64,000 nucleotides of DNA from Cyanidioschyzon merolae. Lineage: Eukaryota. Under the pieces are notes generated by a model. That model searched no databases, was not told the origin of the DNA, and saw only the letters and a program-made list of their open reading frames with translations. Shown here in pieces: positions 3,549-64,000 of the stretch. Both the position numbers and the translations under genes were made by a program. Location of the stretch: assembly GCA_000091205.1 (NCBI GenBank), contig AP006493.2. One strand, given 5' to 3'. Position 1 is the first letter of the stretch. Every line of letters starts with the position of its first letter.

Positions 3549-3786
3549 ACTCCTTTACGAACTTAATCGACCAAGGAGGCTGCGGATCAACAAGCACAGG
3601 TTGATGACTAGTCCTATGAGCGAAGCGGGGGCGCTCGTTCGTCTCCAATGTACACGCGGCCCGGGACCGGCAGCGCTGGGCGCGCATCGCATTCGCTTCG
3701 GCCGGCTATTCGCTGGTGCAGTCGCTTCGCGAATAGCAGACCGCTTTCAAAGGCAGCAAGGGCTCCGACATCACCTGTGCAGCGTC

Positions 3787-5123
3787 AAATAAGGAGACGA
3801 CACTGCTTCCTCCAATGCTGATTTTTAAATCTTTTCCAGAGTTCCTACGCTGTACAGCACCGACGTCCGACGTGCCGCTATGAAGGATAACCGATTTGTA
3901 CGTACTACGTATCGGATGCTCGCGGTGGTTGTTTCGGATTGGTTCATTCGACGCGTCGCCGCCAGCATTCGTTACCATACGAAAATCGTGATGATTCGAA
4001 ATGGGCTCGAGAAACGCACCCTAAAATAACCGATATCAGTATCTAGTGCATACAGGCGAGCCTGCGCTATCCTCCGTGACGTATTGCGCAGGTGTTCGAA
4101 TGCTGGGCTTCGAGGCACCTCGCGGGCGCAGCGTCTCGTGCGGAGAGCTCCACGGCGAGGGAGCCTTGACGTCGTCCCTTATTGGCGTGCTCGTGAGCGC
4201 ATGCCAAAAGCCCGCTCAACCTGTCACGTCAAGTTATCGAGGCCGTCCAAAATTCATCGCCGCCTCGGTTTGTGGTCATCGACGGCATGGCGTGCAGCAA
4301 CCGCTTGATAACGGTTGCGGGAAACGATCCCCAGAGGCTCCCTTGACTTCTGACTGCAGCGGAGAACGCGTATTGGACGCACACTCGAGTCGCCGCAGCG
4401 CTCGCTTCGAGTGCAGCGCGCGTCACCGCTTTGCGAGACGAAAGCGCATTCCGTCCGAGAGTTCTCGGCTTGATCTCCAGCCCGGGGACTTCCCTCTGGC
4501 TCTTGCTCCATCGAAGCGAGCAACGCCTCTCGCAAGCTCCCTATCGAACCTGTGAGCAAACGCGTGCGACAGCAGCGGGCAGAGTGAGTACTCGCCGAGT
4601 GGATCACCCGCACGGAGCCTGTGATCGCTGGGTACACCACCAGCCCCGGTAGCAGAGGAGCGCATCGACGGGAGCCTTCCTGTATCGGTCCATGGCATGC
4701 GCTGAGCAATGGGGCAAGCGCTCGTGAACCAGAGCGTCGCCCGTCGGACAAGACGGGGGCCTCGACGGACATAGCTGCACCTCTGACAGCAGCCCCAAAT
4801 CAGAGTTGCATTGAGCGCACCGGGGCTGTCTCCAGGAAGCAATGGAAACTGCGAGCGAAGCGCGAATCACAGCATTCGCTCGCTCATGGTCTGCTCCGAT
4901 AGCAGCCGGAGGCATCGAAATCGGGACTCGCACGCACTGCCATCAGCATCCTTCGACTGCTGAAGAGAGGCATGGTGGGAAATGAGCGACCGGCGTATTT
5001 GAACCTGGAGATAAGCGAGAGGCGAAGGAAGCACTCGGAGATAGAGCCAGCCACGTCCTATGCTGCCTACTGTGGGAACAGACCAAACCTTTGTCGTGCA
5101 TGAACGAGTCAGAGGATTCGTCC
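3787..5123 (+). repeat. Direct repeat family A, copy 1 (about 1.34 kb)
   Basis: Near-identical (about 99%) to 9972..11308. Every ORF in this span (4046..4555, 4254..4772, 4423..4842, 4604..4933 and others) recurs 6185 bp downstream with 0-3 amino-acid differences. The ORFs overlap on both strands and match no known protein, so the repeat is probably non-coding. Confidence 0.9.
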
Positions 5124-7934: not shown

Positions 7935-9101
7935 CTACACCGCAGTGTCCTCCTGCATAGCGGAAACATCCAGTCGCATGTTCACTTCCTTCGCGAGCCC
8001 CGTGCTCTCAGGTACGCCAGGCCCGGTGGCAGGTGTGTGTTCGCTTTGGGCATCGGCTTCCGCCGATGCAGTATCAAATTTGGTGCTGGTACTTGGTTGC
8101 TGTTGCCTGTACCGCTGATATAGAAATACACCTACGACGCATACGGCGTAACCGCTGAGGTTCAGCCACGAAATGCGGTTCCGAAACGTTATCCAAGAGA
8201 CGCCGATCACCACGGCCGTCTTTACCGTTCCAAGCACGGTGGAGGTTAGGGCACTACTGCGATCTATGAGCAAGATATCCCCAAAATTCAGCCCAACAGC
8301 GAGCAGGCCACCGGCAATAAGAATCAAAATCGTTTCGATCACGTACAGCGCATCTTTGAGCAGCGCATCGTGACGCATTCGGGTCGTCCCGATGGCTAAC
8401 GCTGCTGGCAGAAGCGTTACAAAAGAGATCGGCGCTTGATAATAGAGAATTTGTATTGGACTAAGGCCCACGGCACTATGCAGTTTGCCCTCGGCACCAT
8501 ACCGAAGAAGCAGCTGCTGTTCAATCAAACGCGCGGAGCCGCATAATACGGCCAGTAATTCTAGCGCGAAACCAACTGGATGAAAGTTCATTTCACCAAC
8601 CGTCGCGACCGCTAAACCGACACTAATGATGACGACGATAGCCAACAAGACACCAGAACGCTGCTCTAGTCCAGCGGCGAGTCCGAAGAGCAAAACCGAT
8701 GCCGGCATGCTGCTCTTAATCATTTCCACGAACGAGGCTTCCAGGAAAAGGTAGCCGGCATTGGTGAACACGATATCAAGCGCGACAAAAAGACCGACAA
8801 GCAGCAAGCGAGGTTTGCGGTACGGCTTGTCGATCGTCGGTCGCGAGCTTGGTACGCACCACATATAGAATTGAGTCGCGAGGGAAAGAAAGAGCATATG
8901 GAAACAGGTGACCACGAGAGGGTACGGGAAGCCCCAGCCGAGGCATCGGCCAGCCGTCCGTGAGGTCTGCCGCTCCTCGGCGGCACAGTTTGTAAACAAC
9001 CACTTGTTGTAGATCACTAGAGAAGTTGAAAACGAGTAAGCAAGCACCACTGCTTTCAGCAGCTGTACAGCTTGCTCACGTCGTGGAGGCGTCGTCATCA
9101 C
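7935..9101 (-). CDS. TPT / nucleotide-sugar transporter family (DMT superfamily) membrane protein
   Basis: Multi-pass hydrophobic protein with the SLVIYNKWLF motif typical of the TPT/SLC35 family and about 9-10 predicted TM helices. Hydrophilic C-terminal tail. Confidence 0.6.
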   Translation of the reverse strand: MMTTPPRREQAVQLLKAVVLAYSFSTSLVIYNKWLFTNCAAEERQTSRTAGRCLGWGFPYPLVVTCFHMLFLSLATQFYMWCVPSSRPTIDKPYRKPRLLLVGLFVALDIVFTNAGYLFLEASFVEMIKSSMPASVLLFGLAAGLEQRSGVLLAIVVIISVGLAVATVGEMNFHPVGFALELLAVLCGSARLIEQQLLLRYGAEGKLHSAVGLSPIQILYYQAPISFVTLLPAALAIGTTRMRHDALLKDALYVIETILILIAGGLLAVGLNFGDILLIDRSSALTSTVLGTVKTAVVIGVSWITFRNRISWLNLSGYAVCVVGVFLYQRYRQQQPSTSTKFDTASAEADAQSEHTPATGPGVPESTGLAKEVNMRLDVSAMQEDTAV

Positions 9102-9971
9102 TAGTCGCCCATGCGTACACGCAATCCTAAGCAGCGTGCGCGCAAACGGAAACCGCTCGCGATAGATGCGGACGTTGTGCGAGCACCTCTAAAACCAAAC
9201 CAGGTTGCACACTCAAAGTGTGCCTGCACCGCCTTGCATAAACTGCCTGCAAGCGCCACCCAAAGCTACAGTGGCTGTCGGGGCGACGCCCTGCCGCTCT
9301 CGCTCCCTGTACGGCGCCGCGGAGTGCAACAGTCCAATAGGCCTCCAACGTTTACGCGCTACTGGAGAGCGTCTTCCCGTTGCAGAGCAAATTTTGAAAC
9401 AGCTTCCCGCCCTGCTGCTGTATCAACCTCGCTTAAGAGCAACTGCTTTGTGCTACGAAGAATGCAGGACGTATACGTCTCCACAGCAAAACCGACGCAT
9501 AGCGCACATGCGGAGCGTCCAGCACAGTCGGCAAATTCTTTTTCATGGACAAAACGTGTCCATGGGCCAGCGGTCTCCGATTGTGCGCTTTTTCCTTTCT
9601 TTTCTTTTTTGTCAGCGTGCGGTGAAGTATCCATCAAACCGCCTGCTTCCAAGTTACATTATCCATACTTCTTCTCGGATATTCTGGTCGTTTGGTTCGT
9701 TCTATTGTGTGCCGAGCGCCTGCTTTGTTGGCCCGCAATGCCGCCTATAGCGCCGGTGCGGTCTCTGCGCCGAGGCAGAACACGGCGTTGCCGTACCACA
9801 CAGAGGACATCGGTTCGGAAGCAGTCGGTCAATGCGTGACGCTTTCGGGTCGTGTGCAAGCAACGAGCGCACCTGCGCTCTTTGGAGCGCATGCTTGCTG
9901 CCTGGTGCGGGATTCAAGGATCGATGGATTCGAGGCAGCACCCGACTCGAATACGCTGGACAAAGGTTGGA

Positions 9972-11308
9972 TGTATGGAAGACGACACTGCTTCCTCCAA
10001 TGCTGCTTTTTAAATCTTTTCCAGAGTTCCTACGCTGTACAGCACCGACGTCCGACGTGCCACTATGAAGGATAACCGATTTGTACGTACTACGTATCGG
10101 ATGCTCGCGGTGGTTGTTTCGGATTGGTTCATTCGACGCGTCGCCGCCAGCATTCGTTACCATACGAAAATCGTGATGATTCGAAATGGGCTCGAGAAAC
10201 GCACCCTAAAATAATCGATATCAGTATCCAATGCATACAGGCGAGCCTGCGCTATCCTCCGTGACGTATTGCGCAGGTGTTCGATTGCTGGGCTTCGAGG
10301 CACCTCGCGGGTGCAGCGTCTCGTGCGCAGAGCTCCACGGCGAGGGAGCCTTGACGTCGTCCCTTATTGGCGTGCTCGTGAGCGCATGCCAAAAGCCCGC
10401 TCAACCTGTCACGTCAAGTTATCGAGGCCGTCCAAAATTCATCGCCGCCTCGGTTTGTGGTCATCGACGGCATGGCGTGCAGCAACCGCTTGATAACGGT
10501 TGCGGGAAACGATCCCCAGAGGCTCCCTTGACTTCTGACTGCAGCGGAGAACGCGTATTGGACGCACACTCGAGTCGTCGCAGCGATCGCTTCGAGTGCA
10601 GCGCGCGTCACCGCTTTGCGAGACGAAAGCGCATTCCGTCCGAGAGTTCTCGGCTTGATCTCCAGCCCGGGGACTTCCCTCTGGCTCTTGCTCCATCGAA
10701 GCGAGCAACGCCTCTCGCAAGCTCCCTATCGAACCTGTGAGCAAACGCGTGCGACAGCAGCGGGCAGAGTGAGTACTCGCCGAGTGGATCACCCGCACGG
10801 AGCCTGTGATCGCTGGGTACACCACCAGCCCCGGTAGCAGAGGAGCGCATCGACGGGAGCCTTCCTGTATCGGTCCATGGCATGCGCTGAGCAATGGGGC
10901 AAGCGCTCGTGAACCAGAGCGTCGCCCGTCGGACAAGACGGGGGCCTCGACGGACATAGCTGCACCTCTGACAGCAGCCCCAAATCAGAGTTGCATTGAG
11001 CGCACCGGGGCTGTCTCCAGGAAGCAATGGAAACTGCGAGCGAAGCGCGAATCACAGCATTCGCTCGCTCATGGTCTGCTCCGATAGCAGCCGGAGGCAT
11101 CGAAATCGGGACTCGCACGCACTGCCATCAGCATCCTTCGACTGCTGAAGAGAGGCATGGTGGGAAATGAGCGACCGGCGTATTTGAACCTGGAGATAAG
11201 CGAGAGGCGAAGGAAGCACTCGGAGATAGAGCCAGCCACGTCCTATGCTGCCTACTGTGGGAACAGACCAAACCTTTGTCGTGTATGAACGAGTCAGAGG
11301 ATTCCGTC
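9972..11308 (+). repeat. Direct repeat family A, copy 2
   Basis: See copy 1. Both boundaries start at gGACGACACTGCTTCC and end at ...GAGTCAGAGGATTC. Confidence 0.9.
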
Positions 11309-21185: not shown

Positions 21186-22500
21186 GTGACACCCCCGCTG
21201 AATTTATTCGAATGCCTTCTCGCAGCGTATAGATATGGAGATAGAGACCAGGACGCAGTGTACCGTGCAGATCGTAGACGAATTGCCTTTGGAATATATT
21301 GTTTACTGAATGGCGCAAGCAGGACTGTATTTCTACCTCAGGTCAGTCATAACTCAGTGCGCAGATGTTTGGTGAACACTAAAAGAAGCAAGTACTGGCG
21401 CTCCGCGCCGCACACGAACACTCTTGAAGACTGCTTGCGATCAACGGTAGAAATCAACACGTTGATCAGCTTACGGAAGGCAAAAGCGATGCTTGTAGTC
21501 GCCACGGGCGTCTCTCCTTCTAGTCAGCTTGTTCGTATTTTCCTAGAAACTCTGGGATCCATTCGCCAAGGAAAGAGTCATTGTTCACGAACGGCTCTTT
21601 TCCACCGAAATCGCAACGAAAGCGTTCCTGGAATGCCGCGATGATTATAAAATACAGGAACGTCAGTTTGTTTTTTAGTCGATGTGACTTGCCTCGGATG
21701 AAACAGTCCTTGCGTATATCGATATTCGCGGAGCAGGGCCCCCATGCTACGTACTATCGAACTCGTAGAGAACGGGGAAATCATGTGTTCCCGCTGCATT
21801 GGATTCATTTGGCGGCCGCAATTACGCTCACGGAAAAAGCCTATAGAACAACACCAAGCACTTCGTCGAATCATGGAATACTTTTCCCATGATGTCTGGC
21901 GACGTCCTTCTAGTGGCCAACATGGTATTTCACGATCCCTGTTGCGTTCGAGCTTTTGCCGATTCTATCTTGGAAAAGAGCTACTTTTCATCCCGGCGTA
22001 CTTTTCGAGCTTGAACCGTATCTGAAGGGGTGTATTCTCTCGAGAACCGTAACGATTGCCCCAGGAGGCGAATCGTTCAAGCGCTCAGCACACGGTTATA
22101 CCGGGACGCATGTCGTCTTTCTTCCGCAAATCCCTCTTCCTCCAGAAAGGCCCTCACCTAAGGGTATAAAGAAGTGCGTTGCGATTAGAAAAATTAAGGC
22201 ATGAGCTCGATTATACGCTTCAGAAAGTCGAGATACGGAGAAGGCGAAGAAGGGCCCGGTAGATAAAAAATGCATATCGCAGACAGAGCGATAAATAGCA
22301 GAGAGGGCACGAGTTCGAGGAATCCTCGCACTTTCAGCTCAAACAGAGGCACAGAACGCATGGCATTCATGAACCGAGACTTTAACGCCGCCATCAGTAT
22401 CAGGAGTTGCGCAAGGCTGAAGAAGAGGCCCCAGGAGCTGAAGCTGTCTAACTTTGTGATGCAGCCTCTTCGACTCTCGAAGTTGACAAAGAGAAGCTGA
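21186..22500 (+). mobile_element. Decayed TnpB/Fanzor-like (IS605 OrfB-type RuvC nuclease) element, copy 1
   Basis: C-terminal RuvC-III signature MAFMNRDFNAAISIRSCA at 22360..22401. An upstream zinc-ribbon-like segment reads TIELVENGEIMCSRCIGF. It sits in a lower-GC island. The reading frame is interrupted, so it is not a clean single ORF. Confidence 0.4.
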
Positions 22501-22799
22501 AGCCGATGGCGGGCGGCCGGTCCAAAAACGCTGGGAGGCGTCTGCGTATGGGTATTCATTTACCCTCCAAGGTCGTAGTACATTTAATGTTTCACGGACA
22601 TGTGCAGTTTCCGTCCGTGCTGCAGACTGGTGCAGCTTCCCGCCACCTGCCCCATGCTGGAAAGCATTCGTTACGCTGCGACGCGCCAGCCGCGCAGCGT
22701 CGCCGGATATTCCAGAGCCGCCGCGACCTCGCGCTTGAGAGCGCACGTTCCGTTAGAAACGGGGTTTTTCGTTTTGGAGCGGGTGCAGAGGCCGTAGTC

Positions 22800-28421: not shown

Positions 28422-30292
28422 TAGAAGCTGGGCCTTTTCAGGACAACGCCTCGCCCCCGGCTATTGACCGCTGGGGGCGTAGATTGTATCGGTGAGCGTC
28501 GCCGCAGCCGCCGGCCTCACGATGGCATCCGACCGTCGCAGTCTTGGCATGATGCCTTGGAAAAGCGACCGCTGGCTGCTGTCTGCAGGACGAACAGACC
28601 AGCGCATTCTGACAGACGCTTCGACGTTGGAGACGCTTCAGTCACGAATTTTCCCTGGGAATAGAGGCTATGTGTCGAGCAATCGCCAGTGTACCGAGTC
28701 GGCCTTGCGCGCTGCGCCCGTGTCAGGGATGCATGGAACACCGAAATGCATGCGCTGTTCCCGCCTTGCGATTCATTATACGAACGATTGTCGAAATGCA
28801 CCGTCGGTATTCCGTGATACAGCAACAAGGGCTTATGGAACGATACGTAGGTTTGGGAATTTGAGTCTTTTTTGTCCGAGCGGCTTCTTCGACTCGTTGG
28901 GGCTGAAATGCGTTACGTCACCGAAATAAAAGGGATTCGCGGCGCATTCGAAAGAACGTTCGTAAATAATCAATACCGATATTCATTTCTCTATGTGGAA
29001 TTCTCTACATTTCTGCTCTTTTCACGTCTGGCATGCCCAAATGACGCATGCGTACGCTGTTTGATCTTTCTTTTTCGAAGCATCTCGTTGATGCAGCAAC
29101 GTGCACCGCTAGATTGTTAACGAAAGAAACTTGACTTCGTTTCCTGGCGGCTTGTCCACAAAATCGATGCAGTAGCTTCACTGAATTCGTCACGAAATAA
29201 ACATCGATTTCGTTCGAAAGACGAGGTCTCCACTATTTCTGACCATCCACCAAGGACATTCGATAGCAGGAGCATGATACCTCTCGAGGCACGTGCACGC
29301 AGAGGCTGCCTTGTTTTCTGTTTTCACGGAAACTTGTCCTGGACTTGGACTTGAATGATCACAGCGATCACTTTCAGTGGAGCATATATGACTAGTCTGT
29401 ACTACGTGAGCCTAGACATATCAAATTCTCTCGACTTGGTCCCCTTCATGGATTTTAGCCTCTGGTACATGTTTCGTCATGGGTGACATCGGGTTTCACA
29501 TATTCTTGTCTATTCGTAAAAACAGCAGGGAACAGAAGGCGGATCAAGTTATGCATTTGAAGAAACGCTTCATCGTTCATTCCGTCTAAGACCGTCTTCT
29601 CGACCGTGAAGAACAGGCTCAGGGAAGCAAAACCAATATTTGGACAACTCAGATTGTCCTTGAAACGAACATGTGGAAAGTGCTTCCGGTGCGTAAACTT
29701 ACCACTAAACAGCGAGGATGGGGAAGAACAACAGAACGGACCGCTAGTTGGTGACTTGTTCATCGATGCTGTCCATCGCCCGCAGCACGAGATAAAACGG
29801 GGCATCATTCACGTCTATTCGGAAGTTCACTTGAGCGGTATAAGATCCCGCGCGCCGAGATTGAGATCTTTTCAGAGAAAAATGTACCCGCCAACCCGAG
29901 CGACGAATCCAACCGCATGCCAGATGCGGCAATGACAGGAACGTCCGGTTCCCTTCTGCTCTGCATAGCATTGCGATCCTGGGAGCCGAATGGCGATACA
30001 AGCGCGCTCCATCGGGCGCCATTGACGGGTACTAACCTACAAGTCACTTGCAGCCTTTCGAGAAAAGATAACGAATTATCAGTACATTAACGAAGAAGGG
30101 ACACCAATAGAGGACTCTACAATAGCGAAAGAGGCCCAACGGGATACAGAAGAAAAGACACAATGGCATCATGATCCACATGCCAGAAGAGTAACCAGAG
30201 AAAGTAGCTCAGGAAAGAGCCCGAAGAAGAAGAAGACCAACAAGAGAAAACAGAAGAATAGAGAGAAGAACTCCCAAACGGGCCCATCACAA

Positions 30293-31575
30293 GTGATCCC
30301 CAGAAAGAGCACCCAAGTGGGAACTCAAGAAAGCTGCCACCAAACCCAGTCACCTACTCACAGCGCTGTAGATCCGAAAAGCCGTGCATACAAATCTTTA
30401 GACCAATTGGCACGCGAGTTTGTAGCTGGGAATCAGAAGATCGCCAGAGAACTGGGACGGCTGGCACCAGAACGCAACAGTTGCAAAGCGCAGAACCTGA
30501 AACGACGTACCAAAACTCGGATTGATGGATGCTACCGACTCAACAAGATCGTCAACCGCACCGCCATACGTGCCAACGCCGGAGACAAGGAAGCGAAGGC
30601 AGCGCTACCGGCGCTATTGCGGGCGATCAGGGCAGGCGCTCGGTGCACGATTTTACGTATGAAACGACCAGAATATCCGAGAAGAAGTATGGGTAATGTA
30701 ACTTGGAGGTGGGCGGTTTGATGGATACTTCACCGCACACTAACAAAAAAGAAAAGAAAAATGCGCATAATCGGAGAACGATGGCCTAAGTAAACGTTTT
30801 GTCAATGAAAACAAAATCGCAATACCCAAGCGTGCGGAAGATGGTAACGACTGTAACTTACGTCAGAAGGACATGCGTCTGTTGAGGTCCTGGAGAGCAA
30901 GATACTATCGAGAATCGGGAATAATGAATGCGAGGACAAAAATCGAGATATGGAATGCAGGAATGAAGGATCACCCCTGGAAGCTAGGAGCGAGGTGACG
31001 AGCCTAGGAGCGGACCTTCAAGCTTTTCGGAAGTTTCATGGAAGTTAGCGTTGTTCATTGGGAGGCGCTGTGGAATGAATATACAAAGCCCCGGTGGGCT
31101 CGTCTGCGTATGAATCTATATTGTGGGAAGCGGCGTGCATTTGACAACTTTTTTAGTTCGTTGAGCGCCTTGAAGGAGAATGAAAATCAGAGGCTCGTAA
31201 TTGCGTATGGAGCAGGGCGCTGGAAGACCCAATAAGGGATTACGCCAGCTCCAACGATGAGAACGTACACGGAGTGTGCACGTCGTTTTGTTACGATACC
31301 TGTAGAAGAGTTCCGAACGTCCTAGACACACCATAATCTGGGGTGTACGCTCCAGCGGGTTGAGATGAAAAAGCGCCAGCGGAGCTCTGAGGATATAAAA
31401 AAGTACGGAGCACTGACGGAAGAGCAAATGGAAAGGAAAGCGAAATTTCGAGGATTGCTTGCATGAGTAAGTACAACGAATGATGGCAAGAAACGTATGG
31501 AGTTTGTGAACCGGGACTTGAATGCCGCGATCAGTGTGCGGAGATATGCGTTGATGGAGACGAGGTCTACAGAGT
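30293..31575 (+). mobile_element. Decayed TnpB/Fanzor-like element, copy 2 (pseudogene with stops and frameshifts)
   Basis: Segments on the + strand in shifting frames: ...RWARLRMNLYCGKRRAFDNFFSSL...ENQRLVIAYGAGRW, then ...RRFVTIPVEEFRTS (the TnpB V.VdEyrTSk motif), then MEFVNRDLNAAISVRRYAL at 31497..31540 (RuvC-III). It is about 70-80% identical at DNA level to the motif regions at 22350 and 43228. Sits in a low-GC island. Confidence 0.5.
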
Positions 31576-32008
31576 AGACAAGAGTGAATTTTCTTGGACA
31601 ACCACGCAAAGTGGATTTATATTGGAAAAAGTTGGAAGTATTAGATGGCCGCTCGAGAACACCTGGAAGGCACCTGCACGTCAGCTGTAGACGTCTTGTC
31701 TAGGGCGGTTTACTCGCCACTACTGTGCACTGCCGGCGGCATCGTTTTTCTTTTCAAGGGCGTTCGGTTTCGGAGGTGATGAACTTTTCGTGTTCCGGAA
31801 CAAAAGCACTAAAACGTTGCCGTTCCCGGAGCTGGGGTATTTGCTTAGTCGTTTTCAACTTTTCCGTGTAGACGACTGAGGTATTACGCGTTATACTGGG
31901 CTGCAGAGGGGAGCACAAAAGCTCCGCAAGCAAACTCGAAGGTATTTTAGGTAGCCTGATCGAAACGCAGAAGCGCTGGTCCGTAACTTCCCGGGTACGA
32001 AAGGAAAC

Positions 32009-35000
32009 TTGCAGCGTATTTCGAGAATAGCAAGCGCTCCGCGTCCGCAGGACATGGCTGGTCGTGCGGGAAGTAACTCGCGTTCAAACTTCAACGGGGA
32101 ACCAGCTGAGCGGTCGCGCCGAACGTCGGCCCGAGGGTACCGCACCACGCTGGACTACGGCGGCGGTGACTGGACCGCACCCGGTCACGCGCCTGATCGC
32201 GACACGAGCCAGAGCCAGGAACCCAGTGTTGAACAAGTTTCAGAGCACGAAGTACACGCCGACGTTATGGCTTCCAGCACTGCTTCCGAAGGTAGCTGCT
32301 CTGCGGAGCAGCGAGAGTTTCTAACCGTAGAAAGTTACCGACAGCAGAAGAACGGGGAGCAAAAACCTGCTTCTGACTCTGGCTGGAATAGAAACGATGA
32401 AACAACGGAGAGAGCATCCAGAGATACGCAATCCGGAGACGCATCTGGCATGAGCGTTACAGCGGGCGGCGCTGTGGCCTCCGTTTCGTCGTCACGGAGC
32501 TCAACGGAGGCGTCGACGCCGAGGTGGCTGCATCTATCAAGGCCGCCTTCGTCTGCGGGTAAGAGTTCTGCGGAATTCTCGGAGCCAAGTGGAGCGGCTC
32601 GGGAGCGTGCGCTCCGCCGTCGACGCGAGTGGAAGCGCCTGGCGTGGCGCCGAGAGGCCATGGAAATGAACCTTCTCGAAGAGCAGTTCAATAGATACTG
32701 TGAGCGGATCCTGAGTGCCCGCGGCTTTTCTCGATCCGAAAGGGGCGCTGCAAGTATGCTCCCCGAATCCATAGCGCTCGCCGAACTGGCAAAGCGCTAC
32801 CAGCGACGTGCCTCGACTGGGCAGCGCCTGCAGGGACTATCACCAGCCGAGATTCGAGAACGCCGCAATGCACAAAAGCGGGAAAGCAAGCAAAGGATCC
32901 AACGATATCGAGAGGAGCGGGCTAGTTTGCTCCGCAGGTTCATCAGTGCATTCAAAATGGAGTTGGGTGAACTGGACGACGACAACGACAACGACAACGA
33001 CGAGATGCCTACCGAAACTGGCGAGCACGGGCGAAGTGCCGACTCCGCATACGGTGTGCATCGCGGCGATCTCTCCATAGCAAGTACCCAAGAGCGGCCA
33101 TTCTCGGAGTATGCCATCGCGGACGCAATGCGCTCGAACGCGAACCATGTCCGTCAGAAAACACGACTGCAGGCAGGTAGCCGATCCACGGCGGAGGCGC
33201 TTCAAGATATGTCAAGTTTTATTGCAGAATATCGGAAGGATGCTCTCGAGGATATGCTATTCGGTAGTCGGCCCCGGAGCGATGCTGCGAATATGGCGAT
33301 CGCAGAGCTTGATGGAAACCTGATGCTGAACCAGCAGCTCATTGGTGATGATGATACTGGCCAGCAGCTGCGAGAAGCGAATCAGATTGTCTCGGAATTA
33401 CTCGCAGAAATGGATGCAAACGGCCCACTGGTGTCGGCCTGGGATCTGAGCTTGTTGAAAACTTCGGGCATGAACACGATCATGGTTCAGAGCCCGAGCA
33501 TGGGTCGGCTTCTTGTCGGCATACAGGTGTTCCAGGGGCTCTTCACGAGCGAGCGAGCAGCCAGGGTTCTGGGGATATCGGCGACTGTCGCGCGCAACGC
33601 GCTCGAACGCCTGCACAACAATGGTTTGCTGTTGGCGATCCCGCGGACAGCGCAGCTGAGTAACGAATACGCCTATCTGGTGCCGGAGCACGTACGTCGC
33701 ATCCCGCCTCACGTTATCCTGCAACTGGCGACAGAACGCCCAACGCACAAGATGGTAACCCTAGTTGACCTGGATTCGCATTCGGTTGCTTCGGAATCCA
33801 TGATGATCGAGGCCAAACAGATCCTCTACCGCGTAGAACATAATTTTGTGCAAGAACTAAGAGAACGTCTCAGTCGCTTGCAGTTGGAGTCTCGCTCGGA
33901 TCAACCGGATGTCTGGGATCGGATTCGGATCTACTTCGACGAGCTCAAGGATGACTTTTTCTACGCCATAGAGGTTGCGCGCAACCATTACGGCATCGTT
34001 GGCGTTTCCGACTTTGTCGCCAGCTTCTCATACCCGATTCGGTACTTACTGAAAGCCGAAGCTCGTACCGGCATCTTCAGGGACATTTACGAGCGATTTG
34101 AGCCAGCGCTGCGCAGCTACTTGACATCACTGAACAGATTGGGACATAACTTGTCACTATGGACAAGAGATGTCGGCACGTCCGCTGGCGACGTCGTCGC
34201 GCTGCAGCGCCAGGTCGAGCACGGCCCGAGCGTGGCCGACTGGCATCGTCTCTACCCGACCTGTCTAGGGAATGAGCATGCAAGCGACGATGCGCTTAGC
34301 TCAGCGTTGCTCCTGGGCGGTACAGTAACGTCGGCGGCGATGCCTTCCCCGCTGGCGGAAGATGCACCCTGTGACTCGCTGACCTTGAGCTTTCCCGACG
34401 AAATCGAGCACGCTATCCTATCCGGTCTGTGTCTGTCTCGAGCTTGCATCGACTCACTCGATTACGAAGAAGCCGAGCGAATCCTGGAACAGTTACTGGA
34501 GGTATGCACGCGGCATTCTCCGATCATTATCCCGAAGAGTCAAAGCGCCAGCAGCAGCGCCCCGAGCAGTACGGCAGTGGCGCCGCTGGGCCCGCGCAGT
34601 TTCTTTCCACATCAAGAAGTCCACCTGTTGATGCATCCAACGATTCATGTGGCAATTCTGGAAAACCTGGGTCGTTCGCATGCGCTGCGGGGTCGAACGA
34701 AAGCCGCTTGTCGCTGCCTGGCGCAGACGCTGGCACTGCGTCGGCAACTGGGCCAAGAGCAATCCATCCCCTATGCGTTGACGCTGATCTCGTTCGGCGA
34801 CTCCTTGATCCGTGAACACCAACTCGAAACAGCGCGTACAGTCTTCGAAGAGGCGCTCTCTATCTTCGATCGCTTCGTACACCGATATGCAGAGCGTTTT
34901 GAGCTTTCCTCCAGAGCCGAAGCGCTCTACTACCTCGCGCTCCTGCACTTTGTGGCCGGCGATGAGCGCAAAGCCATTGAGTTGTTGAACGTGGCCCTAG

Positions 35001-35293
35001 AAGTGCTTGATGCTCGACATAGCAGTAACTTTATCTGCTGTAGTCCGCGCACCGTGCTCACACTCGAGACCATGATTTACAAACTGCTCGCCCAGATCTA
35101 CATCGCTGCCGGGCGACGCGATCGGGCGCTCGTGCTGCTGCAGAACGCACTGAACCTAATTGCTTCCACGTATGCCAGAGGCATCGAAACCGGTATTCAC
35201 GGAGGCAGCCAGTCGCAGGATGAGCGAGCGACCCGAGATCTCGTCGACGTCCTGAGTCAGCTGAGCGTCGACGCGGAATCGAATGCACGTTAA
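32009..35293 (+). CDS. Large TPR-repeat protein (1094 aa) with a low-complexity N-terminus
   Basis: Long uninterrupted ORF. The C-terminal third has TPR-like helical repeats (LGRSHALRGRTKAACRCLAQTLALRRQLG..., AEALYYLALLHFVAGDERKAIELLNVALEV). The N-terminal region is S/R/E-rich. Which Met is the start is uncertain. Confidence 0.5.
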   Translation: MQRISRIASAPRPQDMAGRAGSNSRSNFNGEPAERSRRTSARGYRTTLDYGGGDWTAPGHAPDRDTSQSQEPSVEQVSEHEVHADVMASSTASEGSCSAEQREFLTVESYRQQKNGEQKPASDSGWNRNDETTERASRDTQSGDASGMSVTAGGAVASVSSSRSSTEASTPRWLHLSRPPSSAGKSSAEFSEPSGAARERALRRRREWKRLAWRREAMEMNLLEEQFNRYCERILSARGFSRSERGAASMLPESIALAELAKRYQRRASTGQRLQGLSPAEIRERRNAQKRESKQRIQRYREERASLLRRFISAFKMELGELDDDNDNDNDEMPTETGEHGRSADSAYGVHRGDLSIASTQERPFSEYAIADAMRSNANHVRQKTRLQAGSRSTAEALQDMSSFIAEYRKDALEDMLFGSRPRSDAANMAIAELDGNLMLNQQLIGDDDTGQQLREANQIVSELLAEMDANGPLVSAWDLSLLKTSGMNTIMVQSPSMGRLLVGIQVFQGLFTSERAARVLGISATVARNALERLHNNGLLLAIPRTAQLSNEYAYLVPEHVRRIPPHVILQLATERPTHKMVTLVDLDSHSVASESMMIEAKQILYRVEHNFVQELRERLSRLQLESRSDQPDVWDRIRIYFDELKDDFFYAIEVARNHYGIVGVSDFVASFSYPIRYLLKAEARTGIFRDIYERFEPALRSYLTSLNRLGHNLSLWTRDVGTSAGDVVALQRQVEHGPSVADWHRLYPTCLGNEHASDDALSSALLLGGTVTSAAMPSPLAEDAPCDSLTLSFPDEIEHAILSGLCLSRACIDSLDYEEAERILEQLLEVCTRHSPIIIPKSQSASSSAPSSTAVAPLGPRSFFPHQEVHLLMHPTIHVAILENLGRSHALRGRTKAACRCLAQTLALRRQLGQEQSIPYALTLISFGDSLIREHQLETARTVFEEALSIFDRFVHRYAERFELSSRAEALYYLALLHFVAGDERKAIELLNVALEVLDARHSSNFICCSPRTVLTLETMIYKLLAQIYIAAGRRDRALVLLQNALNLIASTYARGIETGIHGGSQSQDERATRDLVDVLSQLSVDAESNAR

Positions 35294-36786: not shown

Positions 36787-39289
36787 CGCACGAGTGTCAG
36801 ATCCAGTAGCTGCTTGCGTCGAGCGCTACCCAGCACGTTTGCAATAGACGCTGTTGTCGAGCGTTCGACAGCGTCGCCGCGGCTCGACGCTGCTGCAAGA
36901 CTCGAAGGACTCGCTTACCCAGAGCAGTGAACACTGAACCCCTGTGTACCAGCACAGTCTTTTGGTTCTCCTTCGTTGTTCTCGCAGGTACTCAATAACA
37001 GTTATGGGTTGCGTACCTGGGAGAGACCGGCCGCGCGATGCGTTTTTGACGACAATGCTGGCATGCGAGCATGCAGCTGGACTTGTTGTACGGTCAGCAG
37101 GAGGATACATGACCCTGTGTTTCGTCCTTATCCTGAACGTGGTGCACTGTCAGTGGAACTTGTAAATTCTCTATGTACTTGACTGTCTCATCGTCAATCC
37201 ATTCTGCTCGATACGGTCTCTGAGAAATTCGAAGAAAGCAGCCATAGGATATGAAGTTTCCGTACCTTTCATCTGAGCTGTGATGAAGCGACACAACTAG
37301 CCAAAGAAACAAATGCGATTCTATAGGAACATGTCGCTCGTTGAATAACGGATAATTGATGTCGTACTGAAACAGCAACGCTGATTCCAGTGGGTATGGA
37401 TGCTCGTCGCACCCGATGAGACTTTCTTCAGGAAATATGGTAGGGATGGATACGCGCTCCCAAACAAGAGCAAAACGCTGTCCTCAGAGAAGAGCACAGT
37501 GTGCATTCCGACCACACCAGTATCAGCCGCGATGCAATCGTGTCGTCACTTAGAAATCCCGAAACGAACAGGATCGCTCAAAAGCTCATCCTTCATCGAC
37601 GCAGGTCGTGACTTCTGTTTCCGTTCCTCTTGCCTTCTCTTCGTCGGAATCGCTTTTCTTCGCTCATTAGCGGTCAAAGAGTAGGCAGCCTCGAGAGGCG
37701 TCACTTTGCTCGTTGCCCCAGCATATTCCGTCCAGTTTAATCCCGTCGGAGGTGTCTTCGCTATTGTTAGATGCCACGGCTACGCTTGCGTACGCAATAG
37801 ATGACTCGTGCGCATACGTGAAAACGTCCGTCAACCAATGGTTCTCCAGCTTCACCAGCAGCGAAATACTGTGCTGCAGTCCGGCGTTTGCGTCGGAGCG
37901 AGGCGAAAGACCGCGCTCCTTTCTATGGGCGTGCTCGCGACACAAAAGGTGAACGAAGAGGAACTCGTGGCTTAGTCGACACGTACGTACTCTACGAAGG
38001 CGGACTTTTTTCCTACTGATTATCCAGTGCGTCTGAGTCGCGAGGCAGCAAATGGATACAGAGTACAGCGCTCGCATCCACGTCATCCCGCCATGTGAAT
38101 GTGAGCTGAAACAGCACCGGACGAAGTTGAGGCGATCCTCCCGAAAATGGGATGAGAAAGGACGGCAAGGGAAAACATTCGGAGCGGAAGCAACAATCTC
38201 ATACATTTATCCAGGCCACTTTATAAGAACACATCAACATGGAGAATCTTCCACAAAGTGTGGTTCAGGACGCCATCACGCATCGTGTAGCCTGTTGCTC
38301 CAGGAACGCTCGCACAGCTTCTCCAGTCTTGACGTATCTCGTCATGCAACTGTTTGGACGAGCTCCGGTCGCAGGGATGCCAGGTGTCAACATTCCTCTG
38401 GAATTTCTCGTTCAAATCTTCATACGAAAACTGATACTGGGCACAGAGGATGCAAAACGACCAGATCGTAGGATCAGGGATTCGTATAGATTCACTTACC
38501 AGAATACCTCGACGTTTCGCCGTGTCATCTCAGCAACTGAAATATGGTACACAGTTCAGGTGCCCAGAAGTATCAACCCAATCTCAAGGATCAAAACGAC
38601 ATGCGAGTCAATGTAGTGCGCTTCATGAAACGCACAATGCAGCGATGGTTTCCGTCGTACCCTCATTACATTCACCCAGAAAAGTCGGGACAAACCGAAG
38701 GCGCTGTCCAGCGGTGTGATAGAAGCAAATAGCAGACTGGTGATGGCGGAAGCGATCGATATGGTAGGGAAAGTCGCTTGAGATCGTCCAAGCTCATGGT
38801 GTCACCTCTGACTGCGAGTCGGCGAAGGTTGCCTCTAAATAACGAATGAAACGTGATGCCTCTCTTCCGTGCATCTCTCGCTACAACTCTTTTCTGGACG
38901 GAGCCCGCGAACCCGAAGCGAATTCCCTACCCCAAGTCGGGCGCTCTGGACTCCTCAGACACCTATACGACGTGATGCGCATGCCCTACATCATGAGGCA
39001 TCACATCACTGCAGACACTTTTGTGGAATACTGTACGATCTTTATTGTGAGCTGCGGCTGATCTAAGCATGAAACTAGGAAGCACTCACAAAAAGTTCGC
39101 ATGGAGCATAAGCGATACGATTTCAGTGTTTCTCGTTTCCAGGCACGATGCGGAAAAAGGTTTCCGGACAAGATGAAGCGCTGCGCACTAGCCATTTTCA
39201 TTCACTTTTCTGAAACTCGAGCCTGACCCCAGCAACAGAACTCGCTTTCAACCGATCCGGGGAGAGGAAGAGAAAGAATTCGTGGTAGG

Positions 39290-39425
39290 TATAGATCCGG
39301 GGGTTTCGGGTGGTCGTACGCGTTGCCCCAGGCCCGACATCACAGGCACGGCGCCAAAGACCTGAACAGAAAACAGATGAACCCCCTCAACTTTTCCAGG
39401 GCTCGGTATCATCCCACATCGGGCG
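39290..39425 (-). repeat. Short dispersed repeat, copy 2 (inverted relative to 16440..16580)
   Basis: The reverse complement of 39345..39402 aligns to 16455..16512 at about 85% identity. Similarity in the flanking sequence is weaker, about 65%. Confidence 0.6.
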
Positions 39426-40640
39426 TGACAGACGCCAATTTGCATACGTTCAAGTGGAATGACGGTGTCGGGAACCGTCTCGATGTTCTGCGCCCCGTAC
39501 CGATCGGAAGCAGATGTTATGTGCGCTTTCTTCGGAGCGTCGATGATCGTCCCAGAGGCTCACACGGACGCTCTCTGGCAGGAGCACATGAAACGCGCGG
39601 GGATCGTCGCCTGTTTCTGTCGCATGAATGCAAGCAGCCTGCAATCTCTAACTTGTCCAATGCATTGGAAAAAGGAAATGCCCCATAACTCGCGTCGGTT
39701 GATAGAAGCTTCCAGCGCTGGACTTGCTGGAATGTGCAGGGATTCCACACCCGATCCCTTGACGAGAGCGCAGAACAAGTGCAGGAATTGATGCTGCTCG
39801 ACTCCCATCGTTCGATTCATTGGGATGTATACGCAACACGGGCACAGCTGCAAAATGAAGCAGCATAGGAGAGCGCAAACAGATCTGGATGCTTCAAATG
39901 GCATCCGATAAGCTGATCGAGTCTCAGCTGGCGAGGCGGTAGACGGCAAGCCGCTCGCTACAGTATGCTTGGACGAGCAAGTGTCCACCCGAGCACTTTC
40001 CGCACCGGGCATTGAACACCTCGATCAACACCAGGACGTGTCTTGCTCGTCTGTAATGTGAACGGGTTTGTGCTGAACTGCACTCCAAGGTAATCAATTT
40101 TATCTCTCTATGCACGTATTGTGCGGAGACGCTACTGACTTTCGATTCAAAAATCAGTGCCATGCGAGAAAGAGCACTGGGTTCTCGTTTCGAGCACGCC
40201 ACCGGTACGGCACATTCCAGGATTTCAGCAAGCCTGGAACGCTGCACGCAAAAATGACGTGAACGATTTTGCCCGGTAATTGGAGAACAAAAATGGTGTT
40301 CCACCATTCGATATTACAAAGCATACTGGTGCAGTGGGTTGCGCTATCGATGCACCCTTTCGATGATGAGTGGGTTCCAGCGGGTCAGTTCGTCCGCGAT
40401 GCCGCCACGTAGCGCTCCTATGCAAGGGGTGCGAATGCTCCTGCGTACCCGCGGGCGCCAGATGACGGGCAGACAGGCAAAGTGACCGACCGATTGTCCG
40501 TCCGTCCCGCTGAATGGCTGAACGCGTGACTGTCCGTCCATCTGCCTGTTTGTCTTTTTCATGTTAGGATTGATAGCGCCAGCATCGGGGCGGCAACGTT
40601 GAGGTTTCGGGATCATCATGCACACACAGGGTGATAAACT

Positions 40641-43149: not shown

Positions 43150-43330
43150 TGACGAGACCGCAGTGGCCCGTCGGGCACGAGTTCGATGAACCCCTACAGA
43201 GGCGAGTTCCACCAGAGGCAATAAAAGCATGGCGTTCGTGAAGCGATACTTGAACGCTGCGCTCAGTATGAGACGATATGGTGTGCTGGAGACGATATGC
43301 GCGGAGCTGAACCGTTCTAACTATGCAGGG
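43150..43330 (+). mobile_element. TnpB/Fanzor-like relic, copy 3 (C-terminal fragment only)
   Basis: MAFVKRYLNAALSMRRYGVLET at 43229..43295. Its DNA is about 70-75% identical to the RuvC-III motif regions at 22351 and 31497. The RDxNAA site is mutated to RYLNAA. Confidence 0.35.
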
Positions 43331-43663
43331 GCAGCTTCTGCTACTCGAATTGTACCTGGATGAGCTGAAACCGATACCAGCCGGCCGGGTCAAAAAGGCT
43401 GGCAGGCATCTGTGACTGTGTGTGTATCTAGAAACTCTATGGTCGCCGAACTTTTTCCGTCTTACTTCGAATCATATTACTCGGGCGTTAACGACTCCCG
43501 GAGAACCCGGGACGCTGCAGTATCCGATCGTCTACCTGTATGTCTATGACTCTATCCGAGATTGAGAGTGCGGGTAGGAGCTGAGGTCTACCCCGACGGT
43601 TATTGGCAGCACTCGTGTGTCGGGCGAACTCTGTACCGAGTCGTCGCTCACATGCCATGGGTG

Positions 43664-59451: not shown

Positions 59452-59991
59452 TCCCTTGTTCTGATGCCAGCAGTGGACAGGTACGAACGATGGCAGCGAT
59501 ACCCAAGTGCCGATTGCTCTGCTTCCGGTGCTTATCGACGACGCATTCAATGGACCGGCAAAAGATGCGACCCGTGCTGCACTTGCCGTTCCCCATGTCC
59601 TATGCATCAAGCCTTGACGTACCGTTCGCAGTGCCGGCACTTGACTGCTTGCAGGGATTTTCATGCGTCTAGTACATGTCTCATTCTCCGCCGAGGCCTA
59701 CCCTGCGGTGCTCCAAGCCTGGCTACAGAGCGCTCCACTCGATACCCGCGTTCGATTTTCGCACCCAGTGCAGTGTCCTAGGAGCACGCGCTTCTTCCAG
59801 GCGATGCTCTCAGCGAGTACGCGATCCGCTGCATACGCAAGCGCATACTCTGGTAATCGATCGGGGGTTTGCGGACTCCGATGCCGTCCCTGATGACGAA
59901 ACGATCACAGCAACGAAAACAATGCAGCAAGTTGAGAAGTATCGATGCATCGAGGCTCCCGCAGTGCAACGCGGTGACGTACGCTCCACTC
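59452..59991 (+). repeat. Direct repeat family C, copy 1 (at least 540 bp; copy 2 runs off the end of the window)
   Basis: About 99% identical to 63465..64000 (offset 4009 bp). ORFs 59464..59781 / 63353..63790, 59490..59672 / 63499..63681 and 59663..59893 / 63672..63902 are identical or differ by one residue. No protein homology. Unrelated in sequence to family A. Confidence 0.9.
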
Positions 59992-63464: not shown

Positions 63465-64000
63465 CAGGTCCCTTGTCAGCAGTGGACAGGTACGAACGAT
63501 GGCAGCGATACCCAAGTGCCGATTGCTCTGCTTCCGGTGCTTATCGACGACGCATTCAATGGACCGGCAAAAGATGCGACCCGTGCTGCACTTGCCGTTC
63601 CCCATGTCCTATGCATCAAGCCTTGACGTACCGTTCGCAGTGCCGGCACTTGACTGCTTGCAGGGATTTTCATGCGTCTAGTACATGTCTCATTCTCCGC
63701 CGAGGCCTACCCTGCGGTGCTCCAAGCCTGGCTACAGAGCGCTCCACTCGATACCCGCGTTCGATTTTCGCACCCAGTGCAGTGTCCTAGGAGCACGCGC
63801 TTCTTCCAGGCGATTCTCTCAGCGAGTACGCGATCCGCTGCATACGCAAGCGCATACTCTGGTAATCGATCGGGGGTTTGCGGACTCCGATGCCGTCCCT
63901 GATGACGAAACGATCACAGCAACGAAAACAATGCAGCAAGTTGAGAAGTATCGATGCATCGAGGCTCCCGCAGTGCAACGCGGTGACGTACGCTCCACTC
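63465..64000 (+). repeat. Direct repeat family C, copy 2 (truncated by the window end)
   Basis: See copy 1. Confidence 0.9.

Follow-up and report, generated by a model that had tools for sequence, protein, structure and literature searches.

The window (the whole stretch of 64,000 nucleotides that was analyzed) is from Cyanidioschyzon merolae 10D, is about 55% GC, and carries long ORFs free of introns; one of these, the 388-amino-acid ORF 7935-9101 on the minus strand, encodes a protein 100% identical to one that NCBI lists for strain 10D. Between positions 30066 and 31765, pieces of repetitive DNA follow each other on the plus strand: an N-terminal coding fragment of a retroelement, a 5'-truncated copy of a repeat module that we call R-B, and the 3' part of an element coding for a Fanzor1 protein. 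Fanzor1 proteins are eukaryotic, TnpB-like, RNA-guided RuvC nucleases carried by transposons. The stretch from 30816 to 31765 is very probably the relic of a Fanzor1 element that is dead and truncated at its 5' side, and a member of an old, multicopy family of the CMe-1A type. The first-pass annotation had described a single inactivated Fanzor/TnpB-like gene, with the remnants of a whole protein in canonical order from ORF 30293..30721 to position 31575. That description holds for the pieces between about 30816 and 31575, which are collinear with intact relatives at about 70% amino acid identity, also in a frameshift-aware alignment, and fails for ORF 30293..30721. The features of the locus are collected in Table 1.

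Table 1. Features of the locus, with positions in the window. Lesions are given relative to a consensus of 68 relatives.
Feature	Position	Strand	Remarks
N-terminal coding fragment of an RT-encoding retroelement	30066..30616	+	tblastn matches to P0290, P0281, and P0316 at 64–84% amino acid identity, E down to 1e-58; homology ends at 30616
Repeat module R-B, 5'-truncated	~30597..30818	+	83% identical to window 9753-9540 (minus strand); 3' end …GTCAATGAAAACAAAAT adjoins the Fanzor fragment
Fanzor1 (CMe-1A-type) coding relic	30816..31703	+	C-terminal ~40% of the protein, beginning 8 residues past the RuvC-I DPG and reaching the family stop
CC insertion	30974..30975	+	+2 frameshift; absent in the 68 relatives, shared with the orthologous locus L086
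T insertion	31034	+	+1, restores the original frame; absent in the relatives and in L086
LVIAYGAG, canonical RuvC-II strand position	31194..31217	+	Aligns to family 'VVaYGsA' and to SpuFz1 'TVVMGDW'
In-frame stop TAA	31233..31235	+	AAA (Lys) in 51/68 relatives
VEEFRTS box with the alternative catalytic Glu	31302..31322	+	Family form VDEFRTS; same frame as ORF 31038..31235
In-frame stop TAG	31323..31325	+	TAT (Tyr) in 58/68 relatives
In-frame stop TGA	31464..31466	+	TTA or CTA (Leu) in 51/68 relatives
GTAAGT	31467..31472	+	Val-Ser codons GTA AGT; identical hexamer in 40/68 relatives, alignment ungapped
NRDLNAAISV, RuvC-III motif with the catalytic Asp	31509..31538	+	Aligned to the NRD of PDB Fanzor1 chains; PF07282 faint in relatives
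TAG	31575..31577	+	Also in 13/68 relatives, sense codon in most; coding homology 42 codons further
In-frame 3-nt deletion	after 31636	+	Residues present in relatives
Non-coding 3' terminal segment	31704..31765	+	Decayed hairpin remnants: GGCG...CGCC at 31704-31718, terminal hairpin at ~31743-31762
Insertion of 3 nt within the 3' terminal segment	31737-31739	+	Absent in relatives

The conceptual translation of the relic (about 30790-31575) had 225 homologs at E <= 0.01, all of them JGI or ENA metagenome sequences, and the best was about 70% identical. A six-frame HMM scan of the window placed the relic at 30813-31700. The close-family profile A1, which was built from 16 close homologs, matched over its positions 63-358 (E = 3e-151), and the broader profile A2 matched over positions 388-603 of 617 (E = 1.3e-62). 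When the close-family profile was used for an exhaustive HMM search, 1343 relatives were retrieved, many of them 600-700 amino acids long. A2 is an alignment of 61 sequences, in which wider relatives stand together with the close homologs P0002 and P0019. When A2 was compared with the PDB, it matched the solved Fanzor1 proteins of Parasitella (9cf0, E = 7.8e-20), Spizellomyces (8gkh, E = 5.8e-13), and Guillardia (9cer, E = 4.7e-6), and the alignments superposed the DPG motif of RuvC-I, the DEFRT motif of the alternative Glu, and the NRD motif of RuvC-III. Therefore, the family of the relic is Fanzor1, and the homology to the RuvC/TNB core of characterized Fanzor1 proteins runs from the relic to A1 and from A2 to the PDB. 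The broader profile was needed, as the narrow 16-homolog profile had no meaningful match in the PDB. Scans of the single-sequence translation of the relic against Pfam and NCBIfam gave no match. Close relatives showed a faint match to PF07282 (Cas12f1-like TNB) on their NRDFNAAINIR motif that stayed below threshold (best E = 5.6e-5), and no match of the relic or its relatives reached the Pfam curated threshold.

CMe-1A is a Fanzor1 family of C. merolae with about 150 copies of about 3 kb that are about 80% identical to the consensus; it has no terminal inverted repeats (TIRs), its target site duplications (TSDs) were left undetermined, and its 5' 635 bp are common to a second repeat, TE-N2_CMe (Bao & Jurka 2013, Mob DNA 4:12; PMC3627910). 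A Fanzor1 family in C. merolae has thus been on record since 2013. In pairwise comparisons with about 80 related copies taken from metagenome contigs, the relic was 74-83% identical (mostly 77-83%), and its identity to our own consensus was 85.6%. The HMM map of the window shows at least five more Fanzor1 relics in the same 64 kb. The assignment is based on the organism, the behavior of the copies, and the protein class, set beside the description in the 2013 paper, and the family is called CMe-1A-type in this sense.

The N-terminal side of the protein is missing. In the HMM scan, no match to A2 positions 1-387 of 617, the part that holds the N-terminal REC/WED domains, was observed upstream of 30813 in any frame. 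Nearly all of the related copies aligned to the window from 30815-30817 and the rest started within ten bases, and most of them extended to about 31730-31788. By tblastn, the window covered residues 39-290 of a 290-amino-acid relative. The protein homology of the relic begins with IAIPKRAEDG, 8 residues past the RuvC-I motif VGADPGNTN of the relatives, and therefore RuvC-I and the REC/WED half are absent; the catalytic Asp of RuvC-I (xDPGxxN) is present in the relatives and deleted here. A weak extension of a dynamic-programming alignment upstream of 30816 ('IIGERWPK' against 'VVGAD-PG') was rejected, since this is R-B/retroelement DNA with strong homologs of its own and the HMM finds nothing in it. 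Remnants of a whole protein were thus not recovered. The frameshift-aware alignment, which had been set in advance as the test for collinear RuvC-I, RuvC-II, and RuvC-III segments, returned RuvC-II, the alternative Glu box, and RuvC-III and did not return RuvC-I.

On the other side, the relic is longer than the first-pass annotation had it. The coding homology does not end at 31575: it passes through the TAG at this position (…E*TRVNFLGQPRKVDLYWKKLEVLDGRS…) and stops only where the family does, at 31701-31703. In a profile of 61 3' ends, the conservation of the family falls off past about 31765, where the element ends. What survives is the RuvC-II strand, the Glu box VEEFRTS, a TNB region without cysteines, the RuvC-III motif NRDLNAA, and the tail of the protein, followed by about 62 nt at the 3' terminus.

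The DNA upstream of 30816 has other sources. P0316, one of the proteins matched by the retroelement fragment, has a PF00078 (RVT_1) domain that lies about 270 residues downstream of the match, and the DNA of the fragment was 87% identical to positions 3585-4135 of locus L085 by blastn. No further RT homology was detected elsewhere in the window by tblastn, so 30066-30616 is an isolated retroelement fragment, and the idea that the Fanzor piece had been inserted into a retroelement continuing downstream was rejected on the same result. A composite RT-Fanzor unit was also rejected: in L085, L009, and L017, the retroelement and the Fanzor element stand head to head, and the orientation in the window differs from theirs, so the two pieces are independent here. 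R-B matched L053 (1614-1832), L082, L025, and others, and was found at many metagenome loci in either orientation; it lies directly 5' of the end of the Fanzor core in some copies and is inverted in others. Its 3' end is defined (…GTCMATGAAAAARAAT), and the flanks beyond this end differ among copies.

The retained 3' end was considered with regard to RNA structure, as the place where the structured guide RNA (omega/fRNA) of a Fanzor1 element would be encoded. In most relatives, two hairpins lie close to the 3' terminus, GGCG…CGCC and CGTCGTTCGA…TCGAACGGCG. Over 59 3' ends, 76.6% of the cells in the two hairpins were paired, compared with 35-63% when the partners were slid. The covariation at these hairpins was not above that of shuffles (101 of 500 reached the observed score), RNAalifold on the 3' ends of the family gave only a 3-bp stem, and Rfam had no match at the 3' end. 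The 3' end of the relic itself folded no better than shuffled sequence (z = -0.02). Pair counts, Rfam, and the single-sequence fold gave no support for an RNA-level role of the 3' end that the relic retains.

The junction between R-B and the Fanzor piece bears on the origin of the truncation. In relatives, the Fanzor core starts with ATCGCGCTCGGTGAGCGC…, which forms a 6-bp hairpin, and in L053, L082, L025, and L061 the end of R-B is followed directly by this 5' end. In the window, R-B instead runs into ATCGCAATACC…, which lies about 1.56 kb inside the core, and the partners of the junction share ATCGC. A microhomology-mediated deletion in a copy with R-B next to the core would be the simplest reading of the truncation. 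The starting copy would have resembled L053, L082, and L025, in which R-B immediately precedes the Fanzor core; a deletion of about 1.56 kb would then have produced the 5' truncation, joined via the 5-nt microhomology ATCGC between the first bases of the core and the internal breakpoint. However, the left breakpoint lies 0-5 nt from the natural 5' end of the core, and it is unlikely that a deletion at random within the core would fall there by coincidence.

For this reason, a second explanation was kept, which we regard as possible although distinctly less probable. The element could have been integrated in 5'-truncated form, or copied in by gap repair or homing that aborted; the copy would have been started from its 3' end at a favored site adjacent to R-B, and microhomology would have sealed it to the left flank. 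The 3' end of R-B is indeed the immediate 5' neighbor of full-length cores in the four loci named above, the breakpoint falls at the R-B/core boundary within a few nucleotides and with the ATCGC microhomology, and the window contains other Fanzor fragments that consist of the 3' end only (12526-12275 on the minus strand, and 22182-22550 and 43160-43342 on the plus strand). However, these other fragments do not adjoin R-B, most full-length relatives have 5' flanks other than R-B, and neither an empty site nor a target motif has been demonstrated, whereas one microhomology-mediated deletion in a copy with R-B next to the core yields the same pattern. A wider version of this explanation is improbable: the relic may record how these unclassified Fanzor1 elements, which have no TIR and no TSD, propagate, each copy being started from the 3' end at a favored target. 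A possible route would be the repair of, or homing into, a Fanzor-triggered break, which would sometimes abort and be sealed by microhomology, leaving 5'-truncated copies. This suggestion was made because IS200/IS605-like hairpins occur at both ends of the core, fragments with the 3' end only are present, and the abutment on R-B is shared with full-length cores.

The deletion in a copy with R-B next to the core remains our preferred reading, and such a deletion derivative might be thought to be non-autonomous and still mobilizable, with both termini kept. The relic does retain the 3' terminus of the element, and it adjoins R-B, which precedes the core in some full-length copies. Against this, no more than 3-5 nt are left from the core's 5' end, the 5' subterminal hairpin GCGCTCGGTGAGCGC is absent, R-B is itself truncated at its 5' side by the retroelement fragment, the sequence has diverged by 14% from the consensus, and the terminal hairpin has decayed. 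No second such architecture was found in the window, and among the fetched loci only L086 has it, being this very locus in a strain that is 99% identical. Mobilization of the relic is therefore very unlikely.

It is equally hard to credit that the region from 30293 to 31575 is a complete but inactivated Fanzor-like gene, with all parts in order from a basic N-terminus through RuvC-III. The C-terminal motifs are present and collinear, as this reading would have it, and ORF 30293..30721 (GTG start, 142 amino acids) is basic, as the N-termini of Fanzors often are, with 21.8% K+R and a pI of 11.2; the first-pass annotation was right on this composition and not in taking the ORF for a TnpB/Fanzor segment. 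The Fanzor profiles match upstream of 30813 in no frame, the relatives align only from 30816, and the RuvC-I DPG, which stands 8 residues upstream of the breakpoint in the relatives, is absent. The first 108 codons of the ORF were 84% identical to the N-terminal region of RT-bearing proteins, and the last 34 codons come from R-B, a non-coding repeat. The ORF is a chance read-through of retroelement and repeat DNA, unrelated to Fanzor.

Within the surviving part, the catalytic motifs are those of a Fanzor. Fanzors have an inert residue (Gly or Pro) at the position of the canonical RuvC-II Glu and an alternative Glu downstream (Jiang et al., PMC10530073), and this rearranged RuvC-II was found in the relic. 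The column of the alternative Glu is invariant in 61/61 family members. ORF 31038..31235, which ends in …LVIAYGAGRWKTQ*, had been said to carry RuvC-II; it does hold the canonical strand position, and the catalytic Glu sits in what had been called the TSK box, that is, in VEEFRTS. This box was found where it had been reported, with a TAG directly after it. It is not frame-shifted: 31038-31703 is one frame, and the sole frameshifts (+2 at 30974-30975 and +1 at 31034) lie upstream of ORF 31038..31235. The catalytic Asp of RuvC-III (NRDxNAAxNI) is present.

A zinc ribbon of the form CxxC...CxxC is absent between RuvC-II and RuvC-III, where the relic reads THHNLGC...LLA*VSTT and close relatives read TSYTHHELGC…RGLLALVSTT. 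In the wider family, the interval from the Glu box to RuvC-III contained 0-3 Cys, usually one (the Cys of 'LLWC'), in the 27 of 61 A2 members in which it could be delimited. The missing cysteines are therefore a trait of the whole clade and not a lesion of this copy, and the interval, which had been taken for a degraded zinc finger, is in the state of its clade.

Lesions were called against the open frame of a 68-relative consensus, which represents hot-spring metagenome relatives and not C. merolae paralogs. Each of the stops at 31233, 31323, and 31464 arose from a single transversion. In total, the relic differed from the consensus by 136 substitutions over 947 aligned nt (14.4%), which were spread over the whole relic. 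A RIP-like mutational bias was considered and rejected, since 74 transitions stood against 62 transversions. With the 5' truncation, two frameshifts, and three private stops, the locus has the disabling lesions of a transposon relic and no sign of constraint. The loss of RuvC-I and the N-terminal half, together with the frameshifts, the private stops, and the divergence of about 14%, means that no nuclease can be made. The stretch is open in only 11 of the 68 relatives, so decay is the norm for the family; a fully intact close relative was not found, and the longest ORF within L009 was 503 amino acids.

That the stops are only apparent, and that the gene functions through introns with GTAAGT as a donor, through stop-codon read-through, or through a variant code, is next to impossible: the lesions downstream of 31038 are all in-frame substitutions and a consensus-like donor does follow the TGA, but the relatives are ungapped over every stop, with Lys, Tyr, or Leu codons in its place, long ORFs in the standard code flank the locus, and RuvC-I and the N-terminal half are missing regardless. 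As the hexamer GTAAGT is a conserved Val-Ser codon pair in the relatives, it is not a splice donor, and its earlier dismissal as an intron boundary was correct. C. merolae has only a few dozen introns, which also counts against the intron reading. The last segment, MEFVNRDLNAAISVRRYAL (31497 onward), does follow a stop as reported, namely the TGA.

The age of the relic was judged from L086, a 2224-nt hot-spring metagenome contig that was 99.0% identical to 29874-32098. L086 has the same patchwork with the same truncation, and both the CC insertion and the three private stops occur in it, but not the T at 31034. Therefore, the relic is older than the split of the strains and is still gaining lesions. 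The T is a recent change, being absent from L086, and the locus has drifted neutrally since the truncation.

On its own, the relic matters little, as one among the roughly 150 decayed copies reported in 2013. For annotation, we advise against gene calls at ORFs 30293-30721, 31038-31235, and 31584-31703 and recommend that 30816-31765 be masked as the relic; the upstream ORF should be recorded as a retroelement/repeat chimera. The clade-wide loss of the zinc-ribbon cysteines and the hairpin-bearing element ends without TIRs are perhaps of more interest to Fanzor specialists.

Bacterial TnpB (IS200/IS605) differs from the relic's family, whose catalytic Glu shows the Fanzor rearrangement (PMC10530073), which comes without a TnpA-like gene, and which has a eukaryotic host. 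The RuvC-III/TNB motif of the relatives nevertheless matches PF07282 below threshold, and the relatives resemble IS200/IS605 in having no TIRs and in carrying subterminal hairpins at both ends of the element. With the solved Fanzor1 proteins (9cf0, 8gkh, and 9cer), the likeness is closer, and the family profile aligns over the DPG, the Gly-type RuvC-II, the DEFRTS Glu box, and the NRD. In contrast to these proteins, the clade of the relic has lost the zinc ribbon (CxxC...CxxC) in the interval from the Glu box to RuvC-III, and the relic itself lacks RuvC-I and all N-terminal domains and is broken by stops and frameshifts. The relic differs from CMe-1A in being only a fragment of about 950 bp, without the 5' 60% of the element. 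In other respects, it agrees with the published description of CMe-1A: the organism and the Fanzor1 class are the same, the copies are many, old, and about 80% identical, the element is 2.5-3 kb long with no terminal inverted repeats seen, and a separate repeat module stands at or beside the 5' end, which is TE-N2_CMe in the paper and R-B here, the two being likened by description.

Besides copy 2, the dead 5′-truncated Fanzor1 relic, at least five further Fanzor1 relics were found within the same 64 kb, comprising two long relics and three fragments. The two long relics were much more diverged, with ~26–30% amino acid identity to the close family. None of the five other relics in the window showed DNA similarity to copy 2 beyond ~48 nt; they are thus older or of different lineages and not copies of the element that gave rise to copy 2. 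The 3′ end of copy 2 lies only ~250–290 bp upstream of the start of a 1094-aa ORF (interval considered, window 31765–32060).

Coordinates of the features (window positions unless a metagenome locus is named)
Feature	Coordinates	Strand	Remarks
Long Fanzor1 relic	17561–15763	−	N-terminal profile matches kept
Long Fanzor1 relic	38140–39863	+	N-terminal profile matches kept
Fanzor1 fragment	12526–12275	−	3′ end only
Fanzor1 fragment	22182–22550	+	3′ end only
Fanzor1 fragment	43160–43342	+	3′ end only
1094-aa ORF	32009–35293	same as copy 2	
Direct repeat pair	3795–5122 and 9980–11308		1329 bp, 99.1% identity, spacing 6185 bp
Second direct repeat pair	59465–59991 and 63474–64000		≥527 bp, 99.6% identity, spacing 4009 bp
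Head-to-head Fanzor/retroelement pair	L085 375–2970 and 2968–6038	− and +	also in L009, L017, and L019

Two direct repeat pairs were also present in the window. The 1329-bp repeats enclose a phosphate/PEP-translocator-like gene (7935–9101) and a copy of the repeat module R-B (9540–9753), and this pair resembles a tandem segmental duplication of recent origin, not LTRs. The length of the second pair is a lower bound, as the repeat continues past the window end.

With regard to the protein, the zinc ribbon in the TNB domain was missing its four cysteines across the whole Fanzor1 clade that holds the C. merolae family (DEFRT–NRD interval in A2, the alignment of the wider Fanzor1 family, n = 61), and some members of this cysteine-less clade still had long open reading frames. 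The relatives also carried ~25-aa tandem repeats (KDEEKEEAGPATQEVEDNDLVV…) inserted directly before the RuvC-I motif (e.g., metagenome proteins P0001, P0008, and P0016; locus L002, 1466–1700), the copy number of which varied from element to element.

A full-length Fanzor element lay head-to-head with, and immediately next to, the RT-encoding retroelement in several metagenome contigs. These pairs could be one conserved locus sampled repeatedly or a recurrent association.

The Fanzor core of the relatives started at its 5′ end with a 6-bp hairpin, GCGCTC GGT GAGCGC (L053 1830–1850; equivalents in ~20 loci), and terminated at its 3′ end in two hairpins equivalent to window 31704–31765; no TIRs were found on this core. 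Apparently not mentioned in the 2013 description of CMe-1A (Bao & Jurka, PMC3627910), this architecture of hairpin ends without TIRs is similar to that of IS200/IS605 elements.
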